Assembly: GCA_963667465.2 (NCBI GenBank)
Contig: CAXXDN010000002.1
Span: forward strand, 1,792,001-1,856,000
Reading direction: 5' to 3'
Source of the DNA: Dehalococcoidia bacterium
GTDB lineage: Bacteria > Chloroflexota > Dehalococcoidia > UBA2979
DNA: 64,000 nucleotides
Numbering within the stretch: position 1 is the first letter of the stretch; the number at the start of each line of letters is the position of its first letter. Positions 8,024 through 48,989 of the stretch are shown in pieces. The notes beneath the pieces are model-generated. The model was not told where the DNA came from and ran no database searches. It saw only the letters and a list, made by a program, of their open reading frames with translations. The translations under genes and the position numbers were made by a program.

Positions 8024-9117
8024 CGGTCGTCGCCGACGGGGCGGAGGACGCCGGGGCTTGAGGGGGAGCTGGTTTCGACGGCGACCCGGTCGGCGTCGAG
8101 GACTTGCAGGACCTCGGTCAGATAGCGGCTGTTGAAGGCGATCTTCGCCTCCTCGCCTTCGACGATGGCGTCCAGCTCACCTTCGTTGTTGCCCAGCTCT
8201 TCGGCGCGCGCGGTGATCAGCAGCCGACCGGGCGCGGCGTCCTCGCCCGGGGTGGCGACGAGCCGCACGATGCCGGATCCGTCGCGCGCGAAGATCGAGG
8301 CGATGCGCGTCTCTCGCATGAACTCGGCGACGGCGATCTCGGTCCGCGTGGCGTGCGCGCTGGGAATCAACTGGTCGTAGTTGGGGAACGTGCCCTGCAA
8401 CAGCGTGGCGCTCAGCGTCGCGTGGCCGAGGTCGAAGAGCACCTGCGTGCCGACGGCGTTGAAGCGCATCTCCACCGGGTCCTCGACCTCGGCGAGCATC
8501 CGCGCCAGTTCGCCGAGGGCGCGCGCGGGGACGATCGCCTCGCGCTCGGGGGGACTGCCTTCGAGCTCCATCGTGTGGACCGCGAGGCGAAAGCCGTCGG
8601 CGGCGGCGAGGCGCAACTGGTCACCCTTGATGCCGAAGTGGACGCCGGTGAGCACCGGCCGGGAGTTGTCCGTCGCAGCGGCGAAGACCACCTGGTTGAT
8701 TGCGCGCCGAAGCGCGGCCGGATCGAGGGTGAGCGAGTCTCCGTCCTCGACCGGGGGGATGGGCGGGAAGTCGTCCGCGCTCTGCCCGCCGATGGAGGCC
8801 TCGTTGCGGGCACAGGAGAGGCTGACCTGGCGCGAGCGTTCGGCCAGCGAGAGGTTGATCGGCTGCTGCGGGAGCGAGGCGACGAAGTCGGAGAGCAGCC
8901 GCGAGGGGAGCGTGATCGCCCCGGCTTCCTCGGTGTCGGAGGCGATCGTGTAGGTGATCGCGATCGTCTCGGCATCCGTCGCCGAGAGCGTGAGGCTCGA
9001 GTCGCCCGACTCGAGCAGGATGTGACCGGCGATGGGGAGCGAAGATCGCGCTGGTACGGCGCGCGACACGGCGCTCAGGCCGCGGTGAAGGGCTTCCTGT
9101 TGGACCGTAAGCTGCAT
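7984..9117 (-). CDS. dnaN: DNA polymerase III beta sliding clamp
   Basis: 377 aa; SRPVLTGV, AADGFRL, GTFPNY, IAFNSRYL, VVMPM. Confidence 0.97.
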   Translation of the reverse strand: MQLTVQQEALHRGLSAVSRAVPARSSLPIAGHILLESGDSSLTLSATDAETIAITYTIASDTEEAGAITLPSRLLSDFVASLPQQPINLSLAERSRQVSLSCARNEASIGGQSADDFPPIPPVEDGDSLTLDPAALRRAINQVVFAAATDNSRPVLTGVHFGIKGDQLRLAAADGFRLAVHTMELEGSPPEREAIVPARALGELARMLAEVEDPVEMRFNAVGTQVLFDLGHATLSATLLQGTFPNYDQLIPSAHATRTEIAVAEFMRETRIASIFARDGSGIVRLVATPGEDAAPGRLLITARAEELGNNEGELDAIVEGEEAKIAFNSRYLTEVLQVLDADRVAVETSSPSSPGVLRPVGDDRYTHVVMPMFVQW

Positions 9118-9728
9118 GGGCGAGCCCGACCCGCCTAATCGCTCAAGCGCTGCGCGCTTTCGCCCGCTAGGCGAGTATACGGGTGAGCACCAGCCGCGGC
9201 AATGCGGCGGATCGCATCATTGGATCTGTTACCAAGATCAGGCGGGGTGCATCAGAACGGAGTTACCGAACGGCCATAGGTTGTCGAGGTCAGTGAGTTC
9301 AGCAGCGGAGCGGCTCGTGCTCTTGCGGGGAGCAGTACCGTGACGAGCCGCAGCTAGCACTCGACGAATCCTATCGGGGAACAGCCTTTCAGTGCGCATC
9401 TCGTCAACCAATGCCGTGAGGTTGGCCCGGACTTGGCGCTGAACGGCCAGAGGGGTTGTTCCGCTGCTTCCCGCCAACGCCTGCTCGACGGCACTACGGA
9501 CCCGGGCCTGCCCTGCCTCCCGCTCAACACGGCTTCGGCAATAGCCGCACGTATCAGGGCGTCTACAATAGCGGGCAGGGGCGGTTGATCGATATCAGCG
9601 CGCCATAGGCTGGGAGTTTGCAGCCGCGGCCGTGGTCCGATGCGCTCAGTACGGCATGCCGTTGCGCGCGTCCCATCCGACTCTTCTGCAGGGAAGCGGG
9701 GTTGGCGATCCGTCAGCGTTCGAAGGCT

Positions 9729-10013
9729 GTGGCGCACGCTTTCGCCCGTTGCTCAGTCGCGCTGGCGGGCCTCGGCGGGTTCGTGCTGGCCTGGAGCCTC
9801 TGGGCCGTCGTGATCGCCCGGCGGGCCCCCGTGCCAGACGAAGCCGTACTCTGGGGAGTCCTGACTACCAGCGTGCTGGTACCTACCGTAGCCTCGGCAG
9901 CGGCCGTTTGGCGCCCATCGTTGCTCCCGGCGCTCGCGGCGCTCCTTTGCGGAGCGCTCTTGTTGATGCCCGCCTCACTGTTTTGGCTGATCCGGCTCAA
10001 CGCCTCCTCGTAG
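9729..10013 (+). CDS. Possible small membrane protein
   Basis: Three hydrophobic segments in ORF 9618..10013; start uncertain; no family recognised. Confidence 0.3.
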   Translation: MAHAFARCSVALAGLGGFVLAWSLWAVVIARRAPVPDEAVLWGVLTTSVLVPTVASAAAVWRPSLLPALAALLCGALLLMPASLFWLIRLNASS

Positions 10014-10076
10014 CCATAGCGACCGATCGCGGTGAGCCGCCACCTTACGCTCGCCGTCGCGCGCGGCTCCGCCTCC

Positions 10077-10102
10077 GTTGCCGCGTGTTCTCGCGCGGCA
10101 AC
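10077..10102. terminator. GC-rich hairpin in the intergenic region
   Basis: GTTGCCGCG-N8-CGCGGCAAC, 9-bp perfect stem; no U-tract. Confidence 0.3.
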
Positions 10103-10220
10103 CATAGAAGCGCACTGCGGCGCGGTCAGGGAAACCGATTTGTGATGCAGCGAAAGCGCGGTACGGTAACAGTTACTTCTGATGCACTGCAATGCGGCGT
10201 CACAGGGCCCACCCGGACCG

Positions 10221-11900
10221 CTACGAGCAGTAGGGCGTGAACAGCTCCGCGGCCGCGCGCACGCGGCGCACGAGCGTCGCATGGCTGGCGTGCTCGCCCA
10301 GCTCGGAACCGACGCCGGCCAGGAGCTCGGACACTGCATCGAGGCTGCCGCACTGCGCCCAGTACGACGTGCGCAGCAGCTCGGCGAACTCCGCAGCGGC
10401 GGCGGTCTGGCGGAAGTGCGGACTGGCCGCTCCGATCTCCGCGGCGATCGCGGCCACCGTGATGCCCTCCTCGATCTCGACCGGCCGCCCGCTCGAGGGG
10501 TTGAGCCAGCGCAGCCGGGCGGTCGCCAGCGCGGCGTCGGGGGCGGCGCCTTCCTGCAGGCGCAGCTCGTAGAGGGCGGTCACGTCGCGCGCGAAGCCGG
10601 GCTCGCCGAAGTCGAGCGAGTCGTCGCGGAAGTCCTCGTCGGACACGGCGCGGTTCTCGTAGCCGATCAGCCGGTACTTGCGGACCGTGGCCGGGTTGAA
10701 CTCCAACTGGATGCGGGCGTCGCGCGCGGTCTCCGTGAAGACGCCCTGGGCGCTCTCCTCCAGGAAACGGTCAGCGGCCGCGCGGTCGGCGAGGTAGTGG
10801 TACGTACCGTTGCCGCGGTTGGCGAGCGCCTCCAGCAGCACGTCGTTGTAGTTGCCGCTGATACCGACGCCGATCGAGGTGAGGGCGGCATTGCGCTGCG
10901 CCTGCACGTCGACGAGCTCCAGGATCGACTCGGGACCGGTCGCGCCGACGTTGGCGACGCCGTCCGAGAGCAGGACGATCCGGGCCTGCCGGCCGCGCTC
11001 GAGATCGGCCGCGGCGAGCCGGTAGGCGAGGCGCAGGCCTTCTTCGGCGTAGGTGCTGCCGCCCGTGGCGAGGGCACGCGCGGCGCTCGCGATCTCCTCG
11101 CGGCGATCCCCGTCCACGAAGTCGCTGACGAGGCTGGCGCGCGATCCGTAGCTGACGAGGGCGGCTCGGTCCCTCGGGCCCAGCAGCTCGACCAGGCCCG
11201 CGATCACCTCGCCGGCCACACCGATCCGGTTGTCCGCCTCCATCGAGCCGGAGACGTCCACGACGAAGATCAGCGAGACGGGGCCTCGCTCCTCCGGGGG
11301 CGCGGGGTTGCTGACGCCGACCCGCAGCAGCACGTAGTCCTCCGGCCCGAAGGGCGAAGGCGCGGCGTCCAGGTGCAGGCCCAGGGCGCCCCCGGCGGCC
11401 GGGTAGTCCTGCGGGAGGCTGTTGATGAACTCCTCGACCCGCACGGCGTCCGGTGGCGGCAGGGCGCGCTGCCCGAGGTAGAGCCCGAGGATCTCGTAGG
11501 ACGCCGTGTCGCCGTCGAGGGCGAAGGTCGAGAGCGCGTCCTCGTCGGCATCGATGAACGGATTGACACCGTGGCCCTTGAAGAACATCAGGGGCAGCGG
11601 CCGGTCGTTGGGGTTGGCCGAGCCACCGGCCTCCGGCGGGATCGCCGGCGGCGCCTGCTGAGCCGCCTGGACCGCAGCCGCCGGCGCCGCCGAGGCCGGC
11701 GCCGCCTGGCGCTCGGTGCTGGCCGCCTGCGGGGCCTCGAACTCGTCCTCGCCGCAGCCGCTGAGCACGAGGCCGGCCGCGAGCGCAGCCAGGGCGAGCG
11801 TCCCGGACACGATCCGTCCCGCCCCGCGCGCGCCCGTCGCGAGCCGGACGAGGGTCGCGAAGGACAGGACGCTGCCGATTGCGAGGACCAATGCTCTCAT
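10221..11900 (-). CDS. YfbK-like von Willebrand factor A lipoprotein
   Basis: Lipobox LSGC; STFALDGDTASY, VRVEEFIN, MIDAS DVSGSM, LLSDGVAN, YRLIGYENR, AAAEFAELLR. Confidence 0.9.
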   Translation of the reverse strand: MRALVLAIGSVLSFATLVRLATGARGAGRIVSGTLALAALAAGLVLSGCGEDEFEAPQAASTERQAAPASAAPAAAVQAAQQAPPAIPPEAGGSANPNDRPLPLMFFKGHGVNPFIDADEDALSTFALDGDTASYEILGLYLGQRALPPPDAVRVEEFINSLPQDYPAAGGALGLHLDAAPSPFGPEDYVLLRVGVSNPAPPEERGPVSLIFVVDVSGSMEADNRIGVAGEVIAGLVELLGPRDRAALVSYGSRASLVSDFVDGDRREEIASAARALATGGSTYAEEGLRLAYRLAAADLERGRQARIVLLSDGVANVGATGPESILELVDVQAQRNAALTSIGVGISGNYNDVLLEALANRGNGTYHYLADRAAADRFLEESAQGVFTETARDARIQLEFNPATVRKYRLIGYENRAVSDEDFRDDSLDFGEPGFARDVTALYELRLQEGAAPDAALATARLRWLNPSSGRPVEIEEGITVAAIAAEIGAASPHFRQTAAAAEFAELLRTSYWAQCGSLDAVSELLAGVGSELGEHASHATLVRRVRAAAELFTPYCS

Positions 11901-11989
11901 CTGGGGCCTCCCGGGATGCGAATCCGGTGCGGGCCGGCGCGGGCCGGTGCGGAGCACTTGCCCGCCGCCAACCCGCTGTTACCGATACG

Positions 11990-12015
11990 TACGTCCCGGG
12001 GCGGTGATTAGTTCC
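11990..12015 (-). promoter_or_regulatory. ECF-sigma-type promoter
   Basis: GGAACT-N16-CGTA on the minus strand, upstream of the vWA lipoprotein. Confidence 0.55.
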
Positions 12016-12085
12016 CGAAGCCCGCGCAGGCGGGTCTGCGGGAGGCGCGGACGGGGCTGGCGGTCGCGGGCGTAGGACCGGGGCG

Positions 12086-13405
12086 CTACGCCTCGGGGGC
12101 GGCCTCGCGGAGCGCGGCGGCGAGCGCCTCGACGGTGCGCTCGATCAGCGCTTCGTCGTGGGCGAGGGAGACGAACCAGGCCTCGAACTGCGAGGGCGGC
12201 AGCATGACGCCCCGCTCGAGCAAGGCGCGGTGGAAGCGGGCGAAGCGCTCGGTGTCGCTCTCGGCAGCCTCCGCGTAGTCGCCGGGCGCCCCGGCGCGGA
12301 AGAAGCCGGTCAGCGCCGACCCGGCGCGCGCGACGGCGAAGGGCACGCCCGCCGCCCGCGCCGCCTCGGTGACGCCGGCCTCGAGCTGCGCGCCGAGCGC
12401 TTCGAGGCGCGCGTACGCGGCCTCGTCGGCCTGCACCGTGCGCAGCGTCGCGAGGCCGGCGGCCGTCGCGAGCGGGTTGCCGGAGAGCGTGCCGGCCTGA
12501 TAGACGCCGCCGGCGGGGGCCATTTGCTCCAGCAGCTCGCGTGGGCCGCCGTAGGCGCCGACGGGCAGGCCGCCGCCGATCACCTTGCCGAGCGTCGTGA
12601 GGTCCGGACGCACGCCGTAGCGGCCCTGCGCGCCGGACCAGCCGACGCGGAAGCCGGTGATCACCTCGTCGAAGACGAGCAGCGCGCCGTGCGCGTCGCA
12701 GAGCCGCCGCAGGCCCTCGAGGTAGCCGTCGCGCGGCGGGACGACGCCCATGTTGCCGGCGACGGGCTCGACGATGACGGCGGCGACGGCGCCGGGGTGC
12801 GCCTCGAAGATCGCCTCGACGGCCGTGGCGGCGTTGTAGGGGGCGAGCAGCGTCTGCGCGGCGAAGGCGGCGGGCACGCCGGGCGAGTCCGGCAGCCCGA
12901 GGGTTGCGACGCCGGAGCCTGCGGCGGCGAGCAGGCCGTCCGAGTGGCCGTGGTAGCCACCCTCGAACTTCACGATCAGATCGCGCCCGGTAGCCGCGCG
13001 GGCGAGCCGCAGCGCGCTCATCACCGCCTCGGTCCCGGAGTTGACGAAACGCACCATCTCCACCGAGGGCAGCGCCTCGACGATCAGTTCGGCCAGCTCC
13101 AGCTCGGCCTCCGTCGGCGCGCCGAACGAGGTGCCGCGCGCCGCCGCCTGTCCGACCGCCTCGACCACCGCCGGGTGGGCGTGGCCGAGGATCAGCGGGC
13201 CGAACGACCCGAGGTAGTCGATGTACTCGTTGCCGTCAGCGTCGGCGACGATGGCGCCCGCGCCGCGGTCGAGCACCAGCGGGTCGCCACCGACGGCGCG
13301 GTAGGCGCGCGCCGGCGAGTTGACGCCGCCGGGAAGCACCGCCCGCGCCCGCGCCATCAGCGCGCGCGAGCGTTCGAGCGAGCGGCCGCCGGCCTCGGCG
13401 CTCAC
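12086..13405 (-). CDS. hemL: Glutamate-1-semialdehyde 2,1-aminomutase
   Basis: [44 protein letters not shown]. Confidence 0.97.
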
Positions 13406-14208
13406 GAGGCGACCGCGCTCGGCAGCAGCACGCCGAGCGCCTCCGCCAGCTCGGGGAGTGTGTCGATCGCGAGGGCCGGCGCCGGGTAGTCCTCGGCCAG
13501 CTCGGCGTCCTCGCTGCGGCGCACCCAGGCGACGGGCAACCCGGCACGGTTCCCGCCCAGCACATCGGCCTGGGGCGAGTCGCCGACGTAGAGCACCTCG
13601 GCGGGCGCGCAGCCGAGGCGGAGGCAGGTGACCTCGAAGACCGTGCGGTGCGGCTTGTAGGCGCGGAGCGACTCGGAGCTTTGAATCACGGAGAAGCGCA
13701 GCCGGTTGTGCGAGACCGCGCTCTGCAGGAAGTCCTCGTCCGCGTTGGAGAGCAGGGCGAGGCGGTAGCCCGCGGCAGCGAGGGCGTCGAGCACCTCGCG
13801 CGTGCCGGGGTAGGCGGGAGCGTGGCTCAGCACCTCGCGGAAGTGGTTCGCGCCGGCGGCCGGGTCGCCCTCGAGGCCCTGGTCCTCGAAGACCCGGGCG
13901 AACTGCCGCCGCCAGATCTCCCAGGTCGTGATGAACTCGGGCACGGGGCCGTCGAGCATGTACTCGCGGTCCGGCTTGCCCTCGTCGTCGACGCGGTCGC
14001 CCCAGGGGCTGACGCTGTTCCAGGCCTTCTCGAAGCCCTTCGCGGCCTCCTCGAAGTCCTCGACGGCGAGGCCTTGCTGGTCGAGCGCTTCGCGGAGCGC
14101 CTCGCGGAAGTCCCAGTCGAGGAGCGTGCCGTAGCCGTCGAAGGCCACGGCGCGGATGGCGCCCGCGTCGAAGGCGGGCGCCGCGGGGGCGCCGTTGTCT
14201 GTCGTCAC
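13402..14208 (-). CDS. HAD-family hydrolase
   Basis: [21 protein letters not shown]...D. Confidence 0.88.
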
Positions 14209-15203
14209 CGCGTCTCGCGTAGCCAGCGCGCCGCCTCCTTCGCGTGGTACGTCAGCAGGATGTCGGCGCCGGCGCGGCGGATCGAGGTCAGCGCCTCGAG
14301 GATCGCGCCGCGTTCGTCGATCCAGCCATTGGCGGCCGCCGCCTTCAGCATCGCGTACTCGCCGGAGACGTTGTACGCCGCGAGCGGCAGTTCGGTCGAG
14401 TCACGCACCGCGCGCACAACGTCGAGGTAGGCGAGCGCGGGCTTCACCATGACGATGTCGGCCTGCTCCGCGATGTCGATCGCGACCTCGCGCACGGCCT
14501 CGCGCACGTTGGGCGGGTCCAGCTGGTAGCCGCGCCGGTCGCCGAACTGCGGGGCGGAGTCGGCGGCCTCGCGGAAGGGGCCGTAGAAGGCGGAAGCGTA
14601 CTTCGCGCTGTAGGCCATGATCGGCAACTGCGCGAAGCCGGACTCGTCGAGCGCCTCGCGAATCGCGGCCACGCGCCCGTCCATCATGTCCGAGGGCGCG
14701 ACCATGTCCACGCCCGCCTCGGCGAGCGAGACCGAGGTGCGCGCGAGCAGCTCGATCGCGGCGTCGTTCTCCACCTCGCCGCGGGCGTTGATCGGGCCAC
14801 AGTGCCCGTGGTCGGTGTACTCGCAGAGGCAGACGTCGGCGATCACGGCCAGCGAGGGGTCGGCCTGCTTGAGCGCCTCGCTGGCGCGCTGCGTGATGCC
14901 GTCGTTCGCCCAGGCGCCACTGCCCGCGGCGTCCTTGAGGTCGGGCACGCCGAACAGCAGCACCGCGCGCACGCCGAGTTCGTGCAGCTCAGCAGCCTCC
15001 GAGGCGAGCATGTCCGTCGAGAGGCGCGCCTGCCCCGGCATCGACTCGATCGGCTGGCGGATGCCGGAGCCCTCGGTGACGAACAGCGGGTAGACGAAGG
15101 AGGCGGGGTCGAGCCGGGTCTCGCGGACCAGCCCGCGCAGCGCCTCGGAACTGCGCAGCCTCCTCGTGCGCGCGAAGTCCCGCGTACGTGTCGCGATGGT
15201 CAT
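14205..15203 (-). CDS. hemB: Porphobilinogen synthase
   Basis: [43 protein letters not shown]. Confidence 0.97.
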
Positions 15204-16192
15204 GGTGCAGCCTCCTCCGTGGTGGCGGCGAGGGCGTCGAGGTCTAGCGCGGCGATGCGGGCGTTAAACACGTCACTGAACCGGGGGAGCAGGTCCACTG
15301 CCCACTTGCGCTGGTCTTCGAGCACCTCCGCGGAAGACTCGATGCCCCCGCTGCGCGATGCGAACACAAGCGCGCTCTTGTTCTGGGGCTGCTCGTCCCA
15401 CGTCAGGCGTTCCCCGATCTGCGCCTCGATCGTCTCGCGCTCATCCCGGAGTCGCAGGAATGCAGCGGTGTTCAAGGGCTGTTCGGGCATCTCGATCCGG
15501 AGAACGACTTTGAGCCTAGACTGCGCATCGAACCACGTCTGTATCGAGAATCCCTTGTGCCTCGTGCGAGCGTACAGCCAGTTTCCAGCATAGAACTCGG
15601 GGCGGGTCGTGAAGAAGTCAGGTAGCGTCTTATCCAACTCAGCGACGAAGTCCGCATAGAAGGCTTGATACGCCTTCTCCTTGTCGCTCAACTCGCGCCT
15701 GGTCTTCTTGGCAAGTTCGCGTTGGAAGTCACTTGGCTGCTCTACAACGTTGAAGCGCAGAGCGGGAGCCGAGTCATCGATCCGCAACACCTCTAACTCG
15801 ACCGCGAAGAACGCCACCGCGTCGCTGAGCTCGTTGAGCCAGTGCACTGCTTCGCGATGCTCATCGCGCACCTCTGGGCTGATCCAGACGACGATCTTCG
15901 CGTCGAGGCCAGCGGCGTAGGCGAGCAACTGGCCGAGATGCCCGTGGTCGGTCCGGTCCAGCTGGTTCTCGACGATGACGACACGATCGCTACCCGACTC
16001 CTTGCCGAGCAGATCAAGGCTGAATGCCCCGACTGCCGCTTCGGTCTGCGTGACTTCGATGTCCATCCCGAGCGCCTCGCCGAGCGAATCGATGTGCTCA
16101 GCCAACCAGGGCGTGAAGTCGCTCGCCTCGTTCGGCCAAACATCGCGAGGGTTTACGTTCTCGATGCTGCCAAGTTCCGGCTCAACCATCAC
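15200..16192 (-). CDS. NucS-like PD-(D/E)xK nuclease + DUF4268 protein, copy A
   Basis: [21 protein letters not shown]...IVENQL...HLGQLLAY; coupled to hemB by an ATGA overlap. Confidence 0.82.
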
Positions 16193-16442
16193 GCCTCCCC
16201 CGCCGCGTATCTTCGCAGCGCCGCAACGAGTGCGTCGACCGAGGCGCGGTCGGCGACGACTTGCGGCGGCAGGCCCGCCTCGACTCGATCGGCTGGCGGA
16301 TGCCCGAGCCCTCGGTGACGAACAGCGGGTAGACGAAGGAGGCGGGGTCGAGCCGCGTCTCGCGGACCAGCCCGCGCAGCGCCTCGGAACTGCGCAGCCT
16401 CCTCGTGCGCGCGAAGTCCCGTGTACGTGTCGCGATGGTCAT
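16182..16442 (-). pseudogene. Chimeric remnant: hemB 5' fragment fused out of frame to a cobA-hemD 3' fragment
   Basis: [10 protein letters not shown]...IRQPIES is identical to the HemB N-terminus, then the DNA switches to the cobA-hemD tail. Confidence 0.88.
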
Positions 16443-17437
16443 GGGGCAGCCTCCTCCGTGGTGGCGGCGAGGGCGTCGAGGTCGAGCGCTGCGATGCGGG
16501 GTGCGAAGACTTCCCGGAATCGTGGCGTCAGATCCACAGCCCAGCGCTTGTGCTGCTCCAGCACAGGTTCGGATGACTCGACGCTCCCATCCTTGTGGGC
16601 GAACACGCGCGAGGCTTGGCGATTGTCCAGTCGCTCCCACGTGAGTTGATCGCCGATCGCCGCTTCGATGGCAGCGCTCTGGTTCTGCAGCTGATCGAAC
16701 GCGGACTTGTTCTTGGCTCGGTCGCCCGTGTCGATGGAGAGTGCGACGCGGAATTGGCCGCTCCCAGTGAACGACCACTGAACGAAGAATCCGGAACGGC
16801 CGGTGCTAAAGTCCATCCCGTTGCCGTGACGCACATTCGCAGGATCCGACTTCGTGAAGTACGGGCTTGCAGTGAGCAGGCGCTGCAGCAGGTCAGCATA
16901 GAACTCGTGGTACGCGATCTGCTTGGCGGTTCGCTCGGTCTGGGTCTCTTTGACAAGCTTCCGCTGGAACTCGCTTGGCCGCGCGACGACATTGAAGCGC
17001 GGCGCAGGTAGCGAATTGCCGATCCGCCACACCTCTAACTCGACTGCGAAGAATGCCACCGCGTCGGTGGTTTGTTCGTTGAGCCAGTGCACTGCTTCGC
17101 GATGCTCATCGCGCACCTCTGGGCTGATCCAGACGACGATCTTCGCGTCGAGGCCAGCGGCGTAGGCGAGCAACTGGCCGAGATGCCCGTGGTCGGTCCG
17201 GTCCAGCTGGTTCTCGACGATGACGACACGATCGCTACCCGACTCCTTGCCGAGCAGATCAAGGCTGAATGCCCCGACTGCCGCTTCGGTCTGCGTGACT
17301 TCGATGTCCATCCCGAGCGCCTCGCCGAGCGAATCGATGTGCTCAGCCAACCAGGGCGTGAAGTCGCTCGCCTCGTTCGGCCAAACATCGCGAGGGTTTA
17401 CGTTCTCGATGCTGCCGAGTTCCGGCTCAACCATCAC
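16439..17437 (-). CDS. NucS-like PD-(D/E)xK nuclease + DUF4268 protein, copy B
   Basis: First ~120 aa identical to copy A; C-terminal domain divergent; coupled to cobA-hemD by a GTGA overlap. Confidence 0.82.
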
Positions 17438-18975
17438 GCCTCCCTCGCCGCGTATCTTCGCAGCGCCGCAACGAGTGCGTCGACCGAGGCGTGGGCGGCG
17501 ACGACTTGCGGCGGCAGGCCCGCCTCGACCGCCGCCTCGGCGGTTTGCGGACCGATGCAGGCGACGACGGCGCCTCGCAAGGCCTCGAGGTCGCCGCCGA
17601 GCAGTTCGGCGAGGTTGCGCACCGTCGAGGACGAGGTGAACGTCACCGCCTCGATCTCGCCGGCGCGTAGTGCGGCCAGCACTCCGGGCGGCGGGTCGGC
17701 CGGCGGGGCCGCGAGGTAGAGCGTGACCTCGTCCACCGAGGCGCCCGCAGCGCGCAGGCGCTCGACCGGCGCCGGGTCGGCGCGCTCCGCTCGCGGCACC
17801 AGCACCCGCGCGCCCTCGACACCAACCCGCACCAGCAGATCGGCGAGGTCCCGGCCGCTCGCGCGCTCCGGCATCAGGTCCGGCGCTAGCCCGCGCGCTT
17901 CGAGGGCGCGTGCCGTCGCAGCGCCGACGGCGGCGATGTGCGCGCCGGCGAAGAGGCGCGCGTCCTCGCCCGCCTCATGCACGAGGTCGAACCAGGCCTC
18001 GACGGCGTTGCCGGAGGTGAAGACGACCCAGTGGTAGGCGTCATCGAGCAGTGCTTCCATGGCGGCGTCGACCGCCTCGGGGTCGGCGCGGCGCGCGATC
18101 TCGATCGCGGGCAGCAGCACCGGCTCGGCGCCCTCGGCGCGCAGCGCTTCGGCGAGACTCGATGCCTGGCGGCGCGTGCGCGTGACCAGCACGCGCCAGC
18201 CCGCCAGCGGGCGGCGCAGCGCCGGCGCGAGGCGCTCGCGCAGCGCGACGACCTCGCCGACGACGAGCAGCGCGGGCGGCTCCACCTCGGCCGTGCGCGC
18301 CGACTCGGCGATGCAATCGAGCGGCGCCTCGACCACGCGCTGGCGCGGCGTCGTCGCCTCGACGATCAGTGCGCTCGGCGTCGCGGGCGCGCGTCCGCCC
18401 TCGATCAGCGCGCGGGCGATGCCCTCGAGGCGGCCGACACCCATCAGCACGACGAGCGTGTCGACCGCCGTCGCCAGCTCCGCCCAGCGCACCTGCGCGG
18501 CGGGCTTGGTGGGATCCTCGTGGCCCGTGACGACCGCGAAGCTTACGGCGACGCCGCGGTGCGTGACGGGGATGCCGGCCGCCGCCACCCCGCCGATCGC
18601 CGAGGTCACACCCGGCACGACGGTCGCCTCGAGGCCCGCCTCGGCGAGCGCCTCCAGCTCCTCGCCGCCGCGCCCGAAGACGAAGGGGTCGCCGCCCTTG
18701 AGGCGCACGACACGCTTACCGGCGCGCGCCTGGGCGACGAGCGCGGCGTTGATCTCGTCCTGCGTCATCGCCGACCCACCCGGCGCCTTGCCAGCGTTGA
18801 TCAGCTCCGCCCCGGGCGCGCACTCCGCAAGCAGTTCGGCTGTGCCGAGGCGGTCGTAGAGCACGACCTCGGCCCCTCGCAGCGCCTCGAGGCCGCCCTG
18901 CGTCACGAGGCCCGGATCGCCCGGCCCCGCGCCGACGAGCCAGACGTGCCCGGCCTCGCGCTGCGGGGCGCTCAT
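17434..18975 (-). CDS. cobA: Uroporphyrinogen-III C-methyltransferase / uroporphyrinogen-III synthase fusion
   Basis: LVGAGPGDPGL, RLKGGDPFVFGRGGEE, VPGVTS; HemD part VLVTR, FTSSSTV, CIGPQTA. Confidence 0.95.
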   Translation of the reverse strand: MSAPQREAGHVWLVGAGPGDPGLVTQGGLEALRGAEVVLYDRLGTAELLAECAPGAELINAGKAPGGSAMTQDEINAALVAQARAGKRVVRLKGGDPFVFGRGGEELEALAEAGLEATVVPGVTSAIGGVAAAGIPVTHRGVAVSFAVVTGHEDPTKPAAQVRWAELATAVDTLVVLMGVGRLEGIARALIEGGRAPATPSALIVEATTPRQRVVEAPLDCIAESARTAEVEPPALLVVGEVVALRERLAPALRRPLAGWRVLVTRTRRQASSLAEALRAEGAEPVLLPAIEIARRADPEAVDAAMEALLDDAYHWVVFTSGNAVEAWFDLVHEAGEDARLFAGAHIAAVGAATARALEARGLAPDLMPERASGRDLADLLVRVGVEGARVLVPRAERADPAPVERLRAAGASVDEVTLYLAAPPADPPPGVLAALRAGEIEAVTFTSSSTVRNLAELLGGDLEALRGAVVACIGPQTAEAAVEAGLPPQVVAAHASVDALVAALRRYAAREA

Positions 18976-42383: not shown

Positions 42384-43646
42384 ATGGACTGGGCAGACTC
42401 AGCAGAGCAGGCGGCGTTCCGTGCGAAGGTGCGGGCCTTCTTCGAAGACAACCTGCCCCAGCGCTACCGCGAGGACCTCGGGCCACTCCGCCCGCACATG
42501 ATCCGCGCCTCCAATGGCGAGGAGATCTTCGCCACGCACGCTGACTGGGGCATCGACCGCTACTCCGAGGACCCCGCGGTCAAGGGCGCCGCCGACGACT
42601 GGGCGAAGGCACTCGCCGACGAGGGCTACGTCGCCTCGTCCTGGCCAAAGCCCCTCGGTGGCGCGGGCTTCACGACCATCGAGCAGTTCATCTTCAACGA
42701 GGAGCGCGAGCGCGCCGGCGCGCCCCGCGTCGGCGGCAGCGGCGCGATGTTCCTCGGCTCGCTGCTCATGGTCTACGGCAGCGAGGAGCAGAAGGCGAAG
42801 TACATGCCGGCGATCGCCCGAGGCGAGATCGACTGGGCGCAGGGCTACTCCGAGCCGGGCAGCGGCTCCGACCTCGCCTCGTTGCAATGCCGCGCCGTCC
42901 GCGACGGCGACGAGTACGTGGTAAACGGGCAGAAGCTGTGGTCGCAGCCGCTGACCTCGGACGCGATGTACACCCTCGTGCGTACCGATCCCGAGGCGCC
43001 AAAGCATCGCGGCATCTCGTTCCTGATGATCGAGGACCTCAACGACCCCGGGATCACGATGGCGCAGCTACCGAGCATGGCGTTCCACTACCCGGGGAAC
43101 GGCGAGACCTTCTTCCACGACGTCCGGGTTCCGGTCGCCAACCTGATCGGCGAGGAGAACCAGGGCTGGTACGTCGCCATGACGCTCATGGACTTCGACC
43201 GCGGCAGCCTCTCCGACACCGGCGAGGACCGTCAGAACCTGGACCACCTCCTCGACTTCCTGCAGACCGAGGAGGGTGAGCGCGTCTCGCGCGGGTCCGA
43301 GTTGCCGTCCGTGCGGGCAGAGATCGCCGACCGCTTCATCGAGGCGCGGGTCGGGCAGAACCTCGCGCAGCGCGTCGCCTCGATGCAGGCGGCGGGGCTG
43401 ATCCCGAACTACGAGGCGTCGATCGGCAAGTGCTTCTCGACCGAGCTGCACCAGCGCCTCGCGCGCACGGGGACGAAGACGTTCGGGCTCTACGCGAACC
43501 TCTGGCCGGGCGACGAGCGGGCCCCGCTGCACGGTCAGCACACCCACGACTACGCGCGCACCGTGGCGTTCACGATCTACGGCGGCAGCAGCGAGATTCA
43601 GCGCAACGTGATCGCCACGCGCGGCCTCGGCCTGCCGAGGGGGTAG
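42384..43646 (+). CDS. Acyl-CoA dehydrogenase family protein, copy 1
   Basis: QGYSEPGSGSDLASL, NGQKLW, TIYGGSSEIQRNVIA. Confidence 0.93.
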   Translation: MDWADSAEQAAFRAKVRAFFEDNLPQRYREDLGPLRPHMIRASNGEEIFATHADWGIDRYSEDPAVKGAADDWAKALADEGYVASSWPKPLGGAGFTTIEQFIFNEERERAGAPRVGGSGAMFLGSLLMVYGSEEQKAKYMPAIARGEIDWAQGYSEPGSGSDLASLQCRAVRDGDEYVVNGQKLWSQPLTSDAMYTLVRTDPEAPKHRGISFLMIEDLNDPGITMAQLPSMAFHYPGNGETFFHDVRVPVANLIGEENQGWYVAMTLMDFDRGSLSDTGEDRQNLDHLLDFLQTEEGERVSRGSELPSVRAEIADRFIEARVGQNLAQRVASMQAAGLIPNYEASIGKCFSTELHQRLARTGTKTFGLYANLWPGDERAPLHGQHTHDYARTVAFTIYGGSSEIQRNVIATRGLGLPRG

Positions 43647-43718: not shown

Positions 43719-44981
43719 ATGGACTGGGCAGACTCGCCAGAACAGGCGGAGTTCCGCGCGAAGGTGCGGGCCTTCTTTGAGGACAACCTCCCCCAGCGCT
43801 ACCGCGAGGACCTCGGGCCACTCCGCCCGCACATGATTCGCGCGACCAACGGCGAGGAAATCCTCGCCACCAGCGCCGAGTGGGGCACGGACCGCTACTC
43901 CGAGGATCCCGCGGTCAGGGGCGCCGCCGAGGAATGGGCGAGGGCGCTGGCCGCCGAGGGCTACGTCGCCTCCTCCTGGCCGAAGGATCTCGGCGGCGCC
44001 GGGTTCACCACCCTCGAGCAGTTCATCTTCAACGAGGAGCGCGAGCGCGCCGGCGCGCCGCGCGTCGGCGGGACCGGCGCGATGTTCCTCGGCTCGCTGC
44101 TCATGGTCTACGGGACGGAGGAGCAGAAAGCGAAGTACATGCCGCCGATCGCGGCGGGCGAGATTGACTGGGCGCAGGGCTACTCCGAGCCCGGCAGCGG
44201 CTCCGACCTCGCCTCGTTGCAGTGCCGCGCCGTCCGCGACGGCGACGAGTACGTGGTGAACGGGCAGAAGCTGTGGTCGCAGCCGCTGACCTCGGATGCG
44301 ATGTACACGCTCGTCCGCACCGACCCGGAGGCGCCCAAGCACCGCGGCATCTCGTTCCTGATGATCGAGAATCTGAACGACCCCGGGATCACGATGGCGC
44401 AGCTGCCGAACATGGCCTTCCACTACCCCGGCAACGGCGAGACGTTCTTCCACGATGTGCGCGTACCCGTCGCCAACCTGATCGGCGAGGAGAACCAGGG
44501 CTGGTACGTCGCCATGACGCTCATGGACTTCGACCGTGGCAGCCTCTCCGACACCGGCGAGGACCGCCGGGCGCTCGCACGTCTCATCGACTTCGTGCAG
44601 ACCGCTGAAGGCAGTCGCATCTCGCGCGTCGCGGAGTTGCCGTCCGTGCGGGCGGAGATCGTCGACCGCTTCGTGGAAGCGCGCGTCGGCCAGAGCCTCG
44701 CACAGCGTGTCGCCTCGATGCAGGCGGCGGGGCTGATTCCGAACTACGAGGCATCGATCGGGAAGTCCTTCTCGACAGAGCTTCACCAGCGCCGATCGCG
44801 CACGGGGACGAAGGCGTTCGGGCTCTACGCGAACCTCTGGCCGGGCGACGACCGCGCGCCGCTGCACGGCGAGTTCACCCACGAGTACGCGCAGACGGTC
44901 GCCTACACGATTTACGGCGGGAGCAGCGAGATCCAGCGCAACGTGATCGCCACGCGCGGCCTCGGCCTCCCGCGGGGCTAG
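43719..44981 (+). CDS. Acyl-CoA dehydrogenase family protein, copy 2
   Basis: Same motifs; about 90% identical to copy 1 by manual count. Confidence 0.93.
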   Translation: MDWADSPEQAEFRAKVRAFFEDNLPQRYREDLGPLRPHMIRATNGEEILATSAEWGTDRYSEDPAVRGAAEEWARALAAEGYVASSWPKDLGGAGFTTLEQFIFNEERERAGAPRVGGTGAMFLGSLLMVYGTEEQKAKYMPPIAAGEIDWAQGYSEPGSGSDLASLQCRAVRDGDEYVVNGQKLWSQPLTSDAMYTLVRTDPEAPKHRGISFLMIENLNDPGITMAQLPNMAFHYPGNGETFFHDVRVPVANLIGEENQGWYVAMTLMDFDRGSLSDTGEDRRALARLIDFVQTAEGSRISRVAELPSVRAEIVDRFVEARVGQSLAQRVASMQAAGLIPNYEASIGKSFSTELHQRRSRTGTKAFGLYANLWPGDDRAPLHGEFTHEYAQTVAYTIYGGSSEIQRNVIATRGLGLPRG

Positions 44982-47645: not shown

Positions 47646-48989
47646 ATGCTCGACGGAGGAGCCCAGCCCGTGACGCCAGCCCCCGGCCGCGACGCCGCAG
47701 TCCAACTGCTGCTCGACCGCGCCGAGATTCACGACGTGCTGATGCGCTACGCGTGGGCCTGCGACCGCCGCGAGTTCGACGTGCAGGCTGCGTGCTTCGT
47801 TCCCGACCTCGGCGGTACGTGGGGCTTCGGGCCGATCCCGGACCGCGACACGATGATGGACTACATCCGCCAGGTGGCGCGCTTCCACACGACCATGCAC
47901 TTCCTCGGCAACGAGTTCATCGAGGTCGACGGCGACCAGGCAAGCCTGCAGGCCCACGCGATGCTGATGCATCGCGCGACGCGGCGCGACGGCTCGACAT
48001 TCGAATACAACGCCACCGACCGGCGCTACTCGGAGCGGCTCGAACGCCGCGAGGGCCGCTGGATCATCGCGGAGCGCAACGTCGAGCCGCGCTGGGCGCC
48101 GACGGGTGTGACCGGCGTCGAGACGAGCGACCCCGCCGTCCAATGGCTGCTCGACCGCGCCGAGATCCGCGACCTGATGGCGTCGTACGCCCTCGGCGTC
48201 GACCTGCGCGACTACGACCGCGTCCGCGCCTGTTTCGCCCCCGGCTTCCGCGCCGTCTACGGCGACCACGAGTTCCGCGACCTCGATCCGCTGATCGAAT
48301 ACATCAGCGGCGTCGAGCACTTCGTCTCCACCCTCCACTTCATGGGCTCGCAGCTGATCGAGGTCGACGGCGACGAGGCGGGGATGCGGACCGCCGCGAT
48401 CATCAGCCAGCGCGATCCTCCCGACGGCGAGACGGAGTGGGCCATCGCCGGCAGGCGCTACACCGACCGGCTCGTCCGCCACGAGGGCCGCTGGCGCTTC
48501 GCGGAGCGCAGCCCGGACGCCGCGACGGTCCCGAGCGCGAACCCGCCGCGCCCGGCCTCGGACGACCCGGACGTGCGCTACCTGCTCGACCGCGCGGAGA
48601 TCGAGGATCTGACAGCGACGTTCGCGGTCGGCCTCGACCGGCGCGACTTCGAACTCGTGCGCTCCCGCTTCGCCCCGGACGCCGGCGAGCACGCCGAGCG
48701 CCTGATCGCCTCGCTGCGCGAGGAGCTGGAGCCGTGGCGGCGCAGCACTCACCTGCTCGGCAACCAGCGCGTCGCGATCGACGGCGACCGGGCGAGCGTC
48801 GAGACGTACGCCTACGTGAACTACCAGCGCGCCGGCGAGCGCGAGGCGACCCACTGGAGCAACGGCGCGCGGCGCTACCGCGACGACCTCGTGCGCATCG
48901 AGGGCCGCTGGCGCATCGCCCGGCGGCGCATCGAGGGGCCGTACTACCGCGACCCGGCGGAGCACTACGAGCGCTCGCCGAGGGACTGA
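47646..48989 (+). CDS. Triple SnoaL-like / NTF2-fold protein
   Basis: Three repeats of LLDRAEI...D.R....H..G...I..DGD.A...RY.D...R.EGRW. Confidence 0.88.
   Translation: MLDGGAQPVTPAPGRDAAVQLLLDRAEIHDVLMRYAWACDRREFDVQAACFVPDLGGTWGFGPIPDRDTMMDYIRQVARFHTTMHFLGNEFIEVDGDQASLQAHAMLMHRATRRDGSTFEYNATDRRYSERLERREGRWIIAERNVEPRWAPTGVTGVETSDPAVQWLLDRAEIRDLMASYALGVDLRDYDRVRACFAPGFRAVYGDHEFRDLDPLIEYISGVEHFVSTLHFMGSQLIEVDGDEAGMRTAAIISQRDPPDGETEWAIAGRRYTDRLVRHEGRWRFAERSPDAATVPSANPPRPASDDPDVRYLLDRAEIEDLTATFAVGLDRRDFELVRSRFAPDAGEHAERLIASLREELEPWRRSTHLLGNQRVAIDGDRASVETYAYVNYQRAGEREATHWSNGARRYRDDLVRIEGRWRIARRRIEGPYYRDPAEHYERSPRD

Follow-up and report, generated by a model that had tools for sequence, protein, structure and literature searches.

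Anti-phage nucleases carrying a DUF4268 domain have been described in two systems that appear to act on modified DNA. MdgA and MdgB are DUF4268-holding, modification-dependent nucleases with homologues in many phyla; according to the available part of the preprint, purified MdgA degraded T4 DNA more than T4-GT7 DNA in vitro, and the E77A variant was inactive (bioRxiv 10.1101/2025.02.28.640651). The PDC-S11 family, represented by E. coli ECOR34, was renamed Madara and called modification-dependent (Type IV-like) in the accessible sections of a second preprint, where it restricted T4 with glucosyl-hydroxymethylcytosine but not T4(C), the D63A substitution abolished defence, and the C-terminal domain was considered distantly EVE-like (bioRxiv 10.64898/2026.09.05.749240). 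In addition, DUF4268 fused to GmrSD-type Type IV enzymes was noted in an older survey. Here we analysed a window of 64,000 nt from a Dehalococcoidia bacterium (UBA2979; contig CAXXDN010000002.1, assembly GCA_963667465.2), to which all coordinates refer unless a relative's locus is named. Two DUF4268 nuclease genes, hereafter copy 1 and copy 2, lie within its tetrapyrrole operon on the minus strand, in the order hemA, hemC, cobA-hemD, copy 2, a hemB 5' fragment, a cobA-hemD 3' fragment, copy 1, hemB, a HAD hydrolase gene and hemL. The defence family is known, but the way it is arranged at this locus is new: operon-embedded, heteroallelic and stacked, with family-wide exchange of a C-terminal cassette.

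Copy 1 (15200–16192, 330 aa from a GTG at 16192, type A DUF4268) and copy 2 (16439–17437, 332 aa, type B DUF4268) both matched the PADLOC hidden Markov model (HMM) for PDC-S11, PDLC04911, over profile positions 3–313 of 318, with E values of 1.5e-98 (residues 5–314) and 1.2e-105 (residues 5–316), respectively. By these profile matches, both genes belong to the already known PDC-S11 ('Madara') anti-phage nuclease family. DUF4268 (PF14088) was the only Pfam match in the nuclease copies and exceeded the gathering score in both (E 9.7e-11 in copy 1, 1.9e-19 in copy 2). An earlier note on this DNA, made from the letters, had proposed a candidate restriction-like defence gene, and the full-length match agrees with that proposal, since PDC-S11/Madara and MdgA/MdgB are described as modification-dependent anti-phage nucleases in the available parts of the two preprints. 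Note that the link to Madara and MdgA comes from a common PADLOC family and a common domain, and that residue correspondences are by position, not by alignment. Within the portion of the preprint available, Madara resembles the window genes in its full-length HMM match, its single-gene organisation and its order of N-terminal NucS-like PD-(D/E)xK nuclease, linker and C-terminal domain, and its catalytic Asp has a similar position (D63, as against D60 here, by position only). On the other hand, Madara adjoins BREX in an AT-rich, H-NS-silenced island, whereas the window pair is stacked inside a tetrapyrrole operon. MdgA and MdgB likewise combine DUF4268 with a nuclease, and the catalytic Glu of MdgA, E77, is close in number to E75 here; however, the stacking and allele exchange seen in our window are not described for MdgA/MdgB in the accessible part of that work.

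We then considered the nuclease domain. AlphaFold2 models of both copies were confident (mean predicted local distance difference test, pLDDT, 89.8 for copy 1 and 92.7 for copy 2) and had the same topology. In Foldseek searches, the N-domain models matched EndoMS/NucS (5gke, 2vld) with a probability of 1.00 and a root-mean-square deviation of 2.2–2.5 Å over ~100 columns, and as modelled the N-terminal domain is a NucS/EndoMS-like PD-(D/E)xK nuclease domain. Residues D60, E75, N76, Q77, H83, H85 and Y92 were invariant in 120 aligned sequences and Q88 was nearly so, in keeping with the D...ENQ...QxxxY active site anticipated beforehand. The likeness to NucS/EndoMS (2vld, 5gke) lies in how the catalytic domain folds and in the spacing of the D...ExK...QxxxY-type motif. 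The window copies differ in having a Gln in place of the ExK lysine and no N-terminal mismatch-binding domain of the NucS/EndoMS type. A role in NucS-type mismatch repair was rejected, as the NCBIfam model NF003270, whose cutoff is 216 bits, scored 12.9 bits and matched residues 39–97 only (profile positions 142–199). When copy 2 was searched by sequence against structures already solved, with the single sequence and with a profile, only chance-level matches were obtained (E of at least 0.2). In addition, the predicted complex of copy 2 with copy 1 scored 0.02 against a mark of 0.32, which speaks neither for nor against heterodimers.

The two copies were compared by pairwise DNA alignment, scored segment by segment. 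From the hemB side, the duplicated hemB 5' fragment (15041–15199 versus 16280–16438) showed 3 differences in 159 columns, and the 3' tail of the nuclease gene (15200–15262) showed 4 in 63. The following variable DUF4268 core, 15263–15712 in copy 1 and ~16502–16954 in copy 2, was only 54% identical over 453 columns, and the middle stretch (15713–15830) was 75% identical. The 5' block (15831–16192 versus 17076–17437) then showed a single difference in 362 columns, at 16172/17417 and silent in Leu7, and the 92-nt cobA-hemD 3' fragment (16193–16284 versus 17438–17529) showed 3 in 92, all of them non-synonymous. At the protein level, identity was 100% over residues 2–119, 72% over residues 120–159 and 37% over residues 160–304, and the C-terminal 19 residues were the same in both. 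The 5' block was closer than the flanking fragments (1/362 versus 6/255, Fisher p = 0.02). The tandem unit measures ~1.24 kb, and the motif TCGAC stands at its lower end in hemB (15041–15045), at its upper end in cobA-hemD (17525–17529) and at the junction (16280–16284), where hemB is joined at codon ~55 to the cobA-hemD 3' end through this 5-bp microhomology. Both genes are intact open reading frames (ORFs) on the minus strand. Their stacking, the first ~120 codons alike but for one silent single-nucleotide polymorphism (SNP), the divergent DUF4268 region with an identical end, the few SNPs in the duplicated fragments and the microhomology junction had all been pointed out in the earlier note, and our alignments reproduced each of them. 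Its description of a constant catalytic half holds within this genome, but identity stops at codon ~121, which lies within the nuclease fold (its strands extend to residue ~152 in the model) and not at the domain linker, and the nuclease of a syntenic relative, L001, is 69% identical there.

The pattern of exchange was also seen across the family. More than 2,000 relatives were found by search, of which 121 sequences were used to compare the N- and C-terminal parts and 78 rows to build trees. Over 7260 pairs of the 121 sequences, N and C identity correlated with r = 0.38, and in many pairs an N identity of at least 0.9 went together with a C identity of 0.3–0.5. When eight well-supported clades, defined on the C tree only, were placed on the N tree, 21 changes were required, compared with a minimum of 7 and ~40 for shuffled labels. 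Furthermore, approximately unbiased (AU) tests on the N data rejected C-clade B (p 5.1e-5) and C-clade G (p 9.4e-6), indicating that the two halves recombine across the family, as had been proposed. The C-domain of copy 2 was 96% identical to that of protein P0001, and the nearest to copy 1 was that of P0061 at 71%; the two groupings are separate clades, each with 100% support in the Shimodaira–Hasegawa-like approximate likelihood ratio test (SH-aLRT), and the C-domains of the two copies are ~1.7 substitutions per site apart. The N part of P0061 was only 71% identical to copy 1. P0001 has the 'ELSD' indel variant of copy 1 at residues 121–124 and the sequence of copy 2 thereafter, which is a further sign of mosaic alleles.

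Arrays of family members were found in two of the relatives' loci. In L013, from a Dehalococcoidia metagenome-assembled genome (MAG), positions 10001–13222 hold a full PDC-S11 gene, a solo DUF4268 ORF (11027–11500) and a second full family member of 516 aa with a degenerate ENQ motif (QSR) and a long acidic, Ser/Tyr-rich tail. This array adjoins a signal peptidase gene. In L079 (10001–11628), a solo DUF4268 ORF comes after a full gene. This solo ORF looks like an orphan cassette, ~50% identical to the full gene in its core but ~95% over its last ~115 nt. Both solo ORFs begin at profile position 170–173.

Such arrangements recall two better known kinds of locus. In HsdS proteins, a variable domain set between conserved stretches is shuffled through recombination, with alternative alleles retained side by side. 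The window family shares with them a variable domain bounded by conserved stretches and discordant histories of its parts, as seen from the segment identities, the AU tests and the L079 cassette. However, no HsdM/HsdR partners, invertase or inverted repeats are present here, the neighbours being hemB, cobA-hemD, the HAD hydrolase gene and hemL, and here it is the nuclease itself that carries the variable part, in a system that is Type IV-like. The parallel with HsdS target recognition domains drawn in the earlier note is an analogy only, with neither a methyltransferase nor a restriction partner. The constant 5' part, variable 3' part and displaced cassettes stacked downstream in Rhs/CdiA genes, as far as the available part of the source describes them, are a second likeness, with the orphan DUF4268 ORFs of L013 and L079 as counterparts; on the other hand, the genes here are defence nucleases and not toxins with immunity genes, and both window units are complete genes. 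For Rhs orphan cassettes and type VI secretion system (T6SS) effector-immunity arrays, homology-facilitated illegitimate recombination, with a conserved anchor at one end and an illegitimate join at the other, has been proposed (PMC5361080, available part).

We also examined where the gene is located in relatives. The set comprised 80 listed loci, one genome per species, the best of them 60% identical, and it leaves out the genomes of the closest protein relatives (76–94% identical), such as that encoding P0001. In 2 of the 80 loci (L001 and L028, both Dehalococcoidia MAGs), the slot between cobA-hemD and hemB is occupied by a nuclease gene, each with one copy and a different allele. The flanking proteins of L001 were 92% (HemB), 95% (HemL) and 88% (CobA-HemD) identical to those of the window, and those of L028 were 56–75% identical, whereas the nucleases of these two loci were only 29–69% identical to the window copies, a figure that varies with the half and the copy considered, indicating that alleles turn over at this slot as the earlier note had supposed. 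For the L001 nuclease, identity was 69% over the N part, rose to ~80% in the middle, and was 31–43% in the C part and 81–85% in the tail. The HAD-family hydrolase gene between hemB and hemL is also kept in L001 (85% identical) and L028 (56%). Embedding of the gene in the operon was likewise borne out in the window, where adjacent reading frames overlap by a few bases at their starts and stops and no promoter-like or terminator-like site was found on the minus strand within 15200–17437. L002 (Tepidiformaceae; 8455–13235) offers a second example of a family member placed within a cluster of metabolic genes: on one side it has a carboxyl-transferase gene, and on the other an HMGL-like/PYC_OADA gene with a biotin-carrier gene after it. 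In other loci the surroundings are varied. Among 72,556 plasmid records, 66 carried family members, as did 4 among 50,697 phage records. In L031 (11057–15194), a fragment of another PDC-S11 subfamily (PDLC04913, PDLC04909) and a Type I restriction subunit adjoin a family member. A literature search found no paper combining a defense gene, a housekeeping operon and phage.

How the window pair arose can be addressed from the duplicated fragments. The hemB' fragment (16280–16442, 163 nt of the hemB 5' end) translates identically to HemB, all 3 of its SNPs being third-position and synonymous (chance 0.022), and derived SNP states occur on both copies when polarised against L001. The exclusively synonymous SNPs indicate that each unit derives from a different strain haplotype; the fragments appear to have evolved as working genes in two strains ~2–3% apart. 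Because the hemB' and cobA' fragments are only 2–3% away from the originals and the hemB' translation is intact, the junction must be young, while the C-domains are old lineages, which argues against simple duplication and divergence. We therefore rejected that explanation, in agreement with the earlier note, since the C-domains also group with different outside proteins (P0001, 96%; P0061, 71%) in separate, strongly supported clades. On balance, we consider it fairly probable that a C-terminal cassette was exchanged by recombination and that two of the resulting alleles were stacked by an illegitimate join. The suggestion that the heme genes served as recombination anchors was not supported, since the visible breakpoints are intragenic (at codon ~121 and within the last ~60 nt), and the conserved ends of the gene itself have at least an equal claim to be the anchors. 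The junction that stacks the two units is not a homologous exchange but an illegitimate join over 5 bp.

Two other origins of the pair were weighed against this explanation. In one, the pair is an old in-place tandem duplication, whose 3' halves diverged by point mutation under diversifying selection while the 5' halves were homogenised by gene conversion. Conversion is common in tandem repeats, and the lower divergence of the 5' block relative to its flanks would fit; gene conversion may well have sharpened this block after stacking. However, the non-functional fragments still lie within 2–3% of their originals, with hemB' still translating as HemB, which makes the junction young, yet the C-domains are ~1.7 substitutions per site apart and group with different outside proteins. 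Moreover, L001 and L028 have a single copy. We regard this origin as very improbable. In the other, the single alleles of two co-existing strains were mis-joined in the library or the assembly, and the genome truly has one copy. Chimeric molecules are known to arise when templates switch at short microhomologies, the flanking fragments resemble the functional genes of a second strain (as the 3/3 synonymous SNPs in hemB' show), the related records are MAGs, and the exact copy 1 protein is recorded on a single contig. Against this, that contig is 1.9 Mb long, the 5 bp common to the join are far below the read overlap that assemblers need, the units lie in the same orientation and exact register with both ORFs and both ribosome-binding regions intact, and two other genomes also have stacked family members. 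An artefact of this kind thus seems unlikely to us.

A third alternative accepts the same anatomy but takes DUF4268 as a protein-binding or regulatory module, which would sense a phage protein, control oligomerisation or be the target of an inhibitor, so that its diversity would mirror escape from inhibitors or a changed trigger. The fold searches are compatible with this: the C-domain models resembled YbjN/AmyR and type III secretion chaperones (6vu7, 5fr7, 1jyo, 1xkp, 3kxy, 3tu3) with probabilities of 0.9–1.0 and template modelling (TM) scores of 0.4–0.5, and these best matches bind proteins. The domain thus looks YbjN/chaperone-like in our searches, in contrast to the EVE-like assignment in the available part of the Madara preprint. 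Moreover, the near-invariant residues F210, G213, R269 and R277 are missing from type A (copy 1 and P0061), the loss of the two arginines counting in favour of this alternative. On the other hand, MdgA distinguishes T4 from T4-GT7 DNA in vitro with phage proteins absent (available part of the preprint), GmrSD-type Type IV fusions contain DUF4268, and in the representative search DUF4268 was C-terminal in most of the matches listed, which range from ~100 to 670 aa; all three fit a substrate-recognition module. With the copy 1 C-domain as the query, no match at E <= 1e-30 was obtained among 410 in the representative library. A protein-binding DUF4268 is accordingly rather unlikely in our view, and the literature together with the cassette-like evolution suggests that DUF4268 sets specificity.

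Several points weigh against the explanation by cassette exchange and stacking, or against the role in defence attached to it. The trees were quick LG+G4 inferences on 118–145 columns. The junction at 16280–16284 is known from the assembly alone and could be chimeric. The ExK lysine is replaced by Q77 in all 120 aligned sequences, and cleavage by a Q77 variant is predicted only. Neither fold search of the PDB returned an EVE/PUA-type reader among the rows listed, although a distant resemblance is possible, and with the YbjN/chaperone likeness the fold gives no independent support for reading of modified bases. Same-slot synteny comes from 2 genomes among the loci listed, and a PADLOC match within three ORFs was counted in only 9 of 26 other loci, such neighbour counts being lower bounds because ORF picking in high-GC loci took some antisense ORFs.

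Taken as cassette exchange followed by illegitimate stacking, the data suggest the following course. The stretch from codon ~121 to ~313, mainly DUF4268, would be an exchangeable cassette between a conserved nuclease 5' part and a 3' tail, reshuffled repeatedly by recombination across the family. Two haplotypes of diverged strains, which share a nuclease 5' part and carry DUF4268 cassettes of old, separate lineages, would then have been joined in tandem at TCGAC. Homology-facilitated illegitimate recombination could account for the join, and so could the integration of a circularised fragment. The join left the ribosome-binding regions of both copies intact, and both genes would be co-transcribed in the operon. 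The cell would thereby make two nucleases with one catalytic core and two C-terminal modules, and the two modules may widen recognition, most plausibly to different phage DNA modifications. A more general proposal, which we put forward tentatively and would give less than an even chance, is that PDC-S11 evolves by strain-to-strain swapping of the DUF4268 module by means of the conserved 5' part and the ~60–115-nt 3' end, the module sometimes being stacked or orphaned; that core metabolic operons (the tetrapyrrole operon here, the carboxylase cluster in L002) of streamlined Dehalococcoidia-type genomes offer a stable, always-expressed landing site; and that the pair shows DUF4268 alone to set the DNA modification attacked.

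The pair is of use in this respect as a natural domain swap, with alleles that are identical to codon ~121 and differ almost only in DUF4268, so that any difference in phage or modification spectrum between the copies would map to residues ~122–313. Since the family is already described as Type IV-like defence, the window pair gives a direct experimental handle on the role of DUF4268. The locus also provides an example of a defence gene within an operon for core biosynthesis, where it is coupled in translation to the genes on either side; its position is kept in three genomes while its alleles turn over. As an alternative to defence islands, such embedding is unusual, and it points to a way in which small genomes that have few mobile elements could retain their immunity and diversify it.

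The remaining features of the locus, all on the minus strand, are as follows. Full-length hemB (porphobilinogen synthase; 14205–15203, Pfam ALAD E 1.1e-145) overlaps the stop codon of copy 1 by 4 nt with its ATG, and the full-length cobA-hemD fusion (17434–18975, TP_methylase and HEM4) lies upstream of copy 2, the likely start of which is an ATG overlapping the cobA-hemD stop codon. The stored copy 1 protein, P0033, has 329 aa and begins one codon later than the GTG, at an ATG. A chimeric ORF of 86 aa spans the junction (16182–16442; Pfam ALAD E 3.5e-10) and consists of 54 HemB N-terminal residues followed by 32 out-of-frame residues. It terminates just past the start of copy 1, whose ribosome-binding region is provided by the duplicated cobA-hemD 3' end (16193–16284), so that each unit keeps an upstream ribosome-binding region. 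The HAD-family hydrolase gene (13402–14208) and hemL (12086–13405), both assigned from ORFs and Pfam, are downstream operon genes. Both nuclease copies have a GC content of 62% and a third-position GC content (GC3) of 78%, compared with 72–77% and 91–96% in the flanking genes; by its composition, the nuclease gene appears foreign to this high-GC genome, yet it is fixed in place. Along the DNA, GC falls to 56–64% across both nuclease genes (15200–17437) versus 71–79% in the surrounding operon.

Two other repeats were observed in the window, both on the plus strand. A tandem pair of 420-aa acyl-CoA dehydrogenase paralogues (42384–43646 and 43719–44981), with first 300 nt that are 87% identical, looks like ordinary tandem genes, and no fragments of flanking genes were seen there. 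An ORF of 447 aa (47646–48989) carries three SnoaL_4 domains, encoded by three direct DNA repeats with ~435-nt spacing and 62–74% identity.

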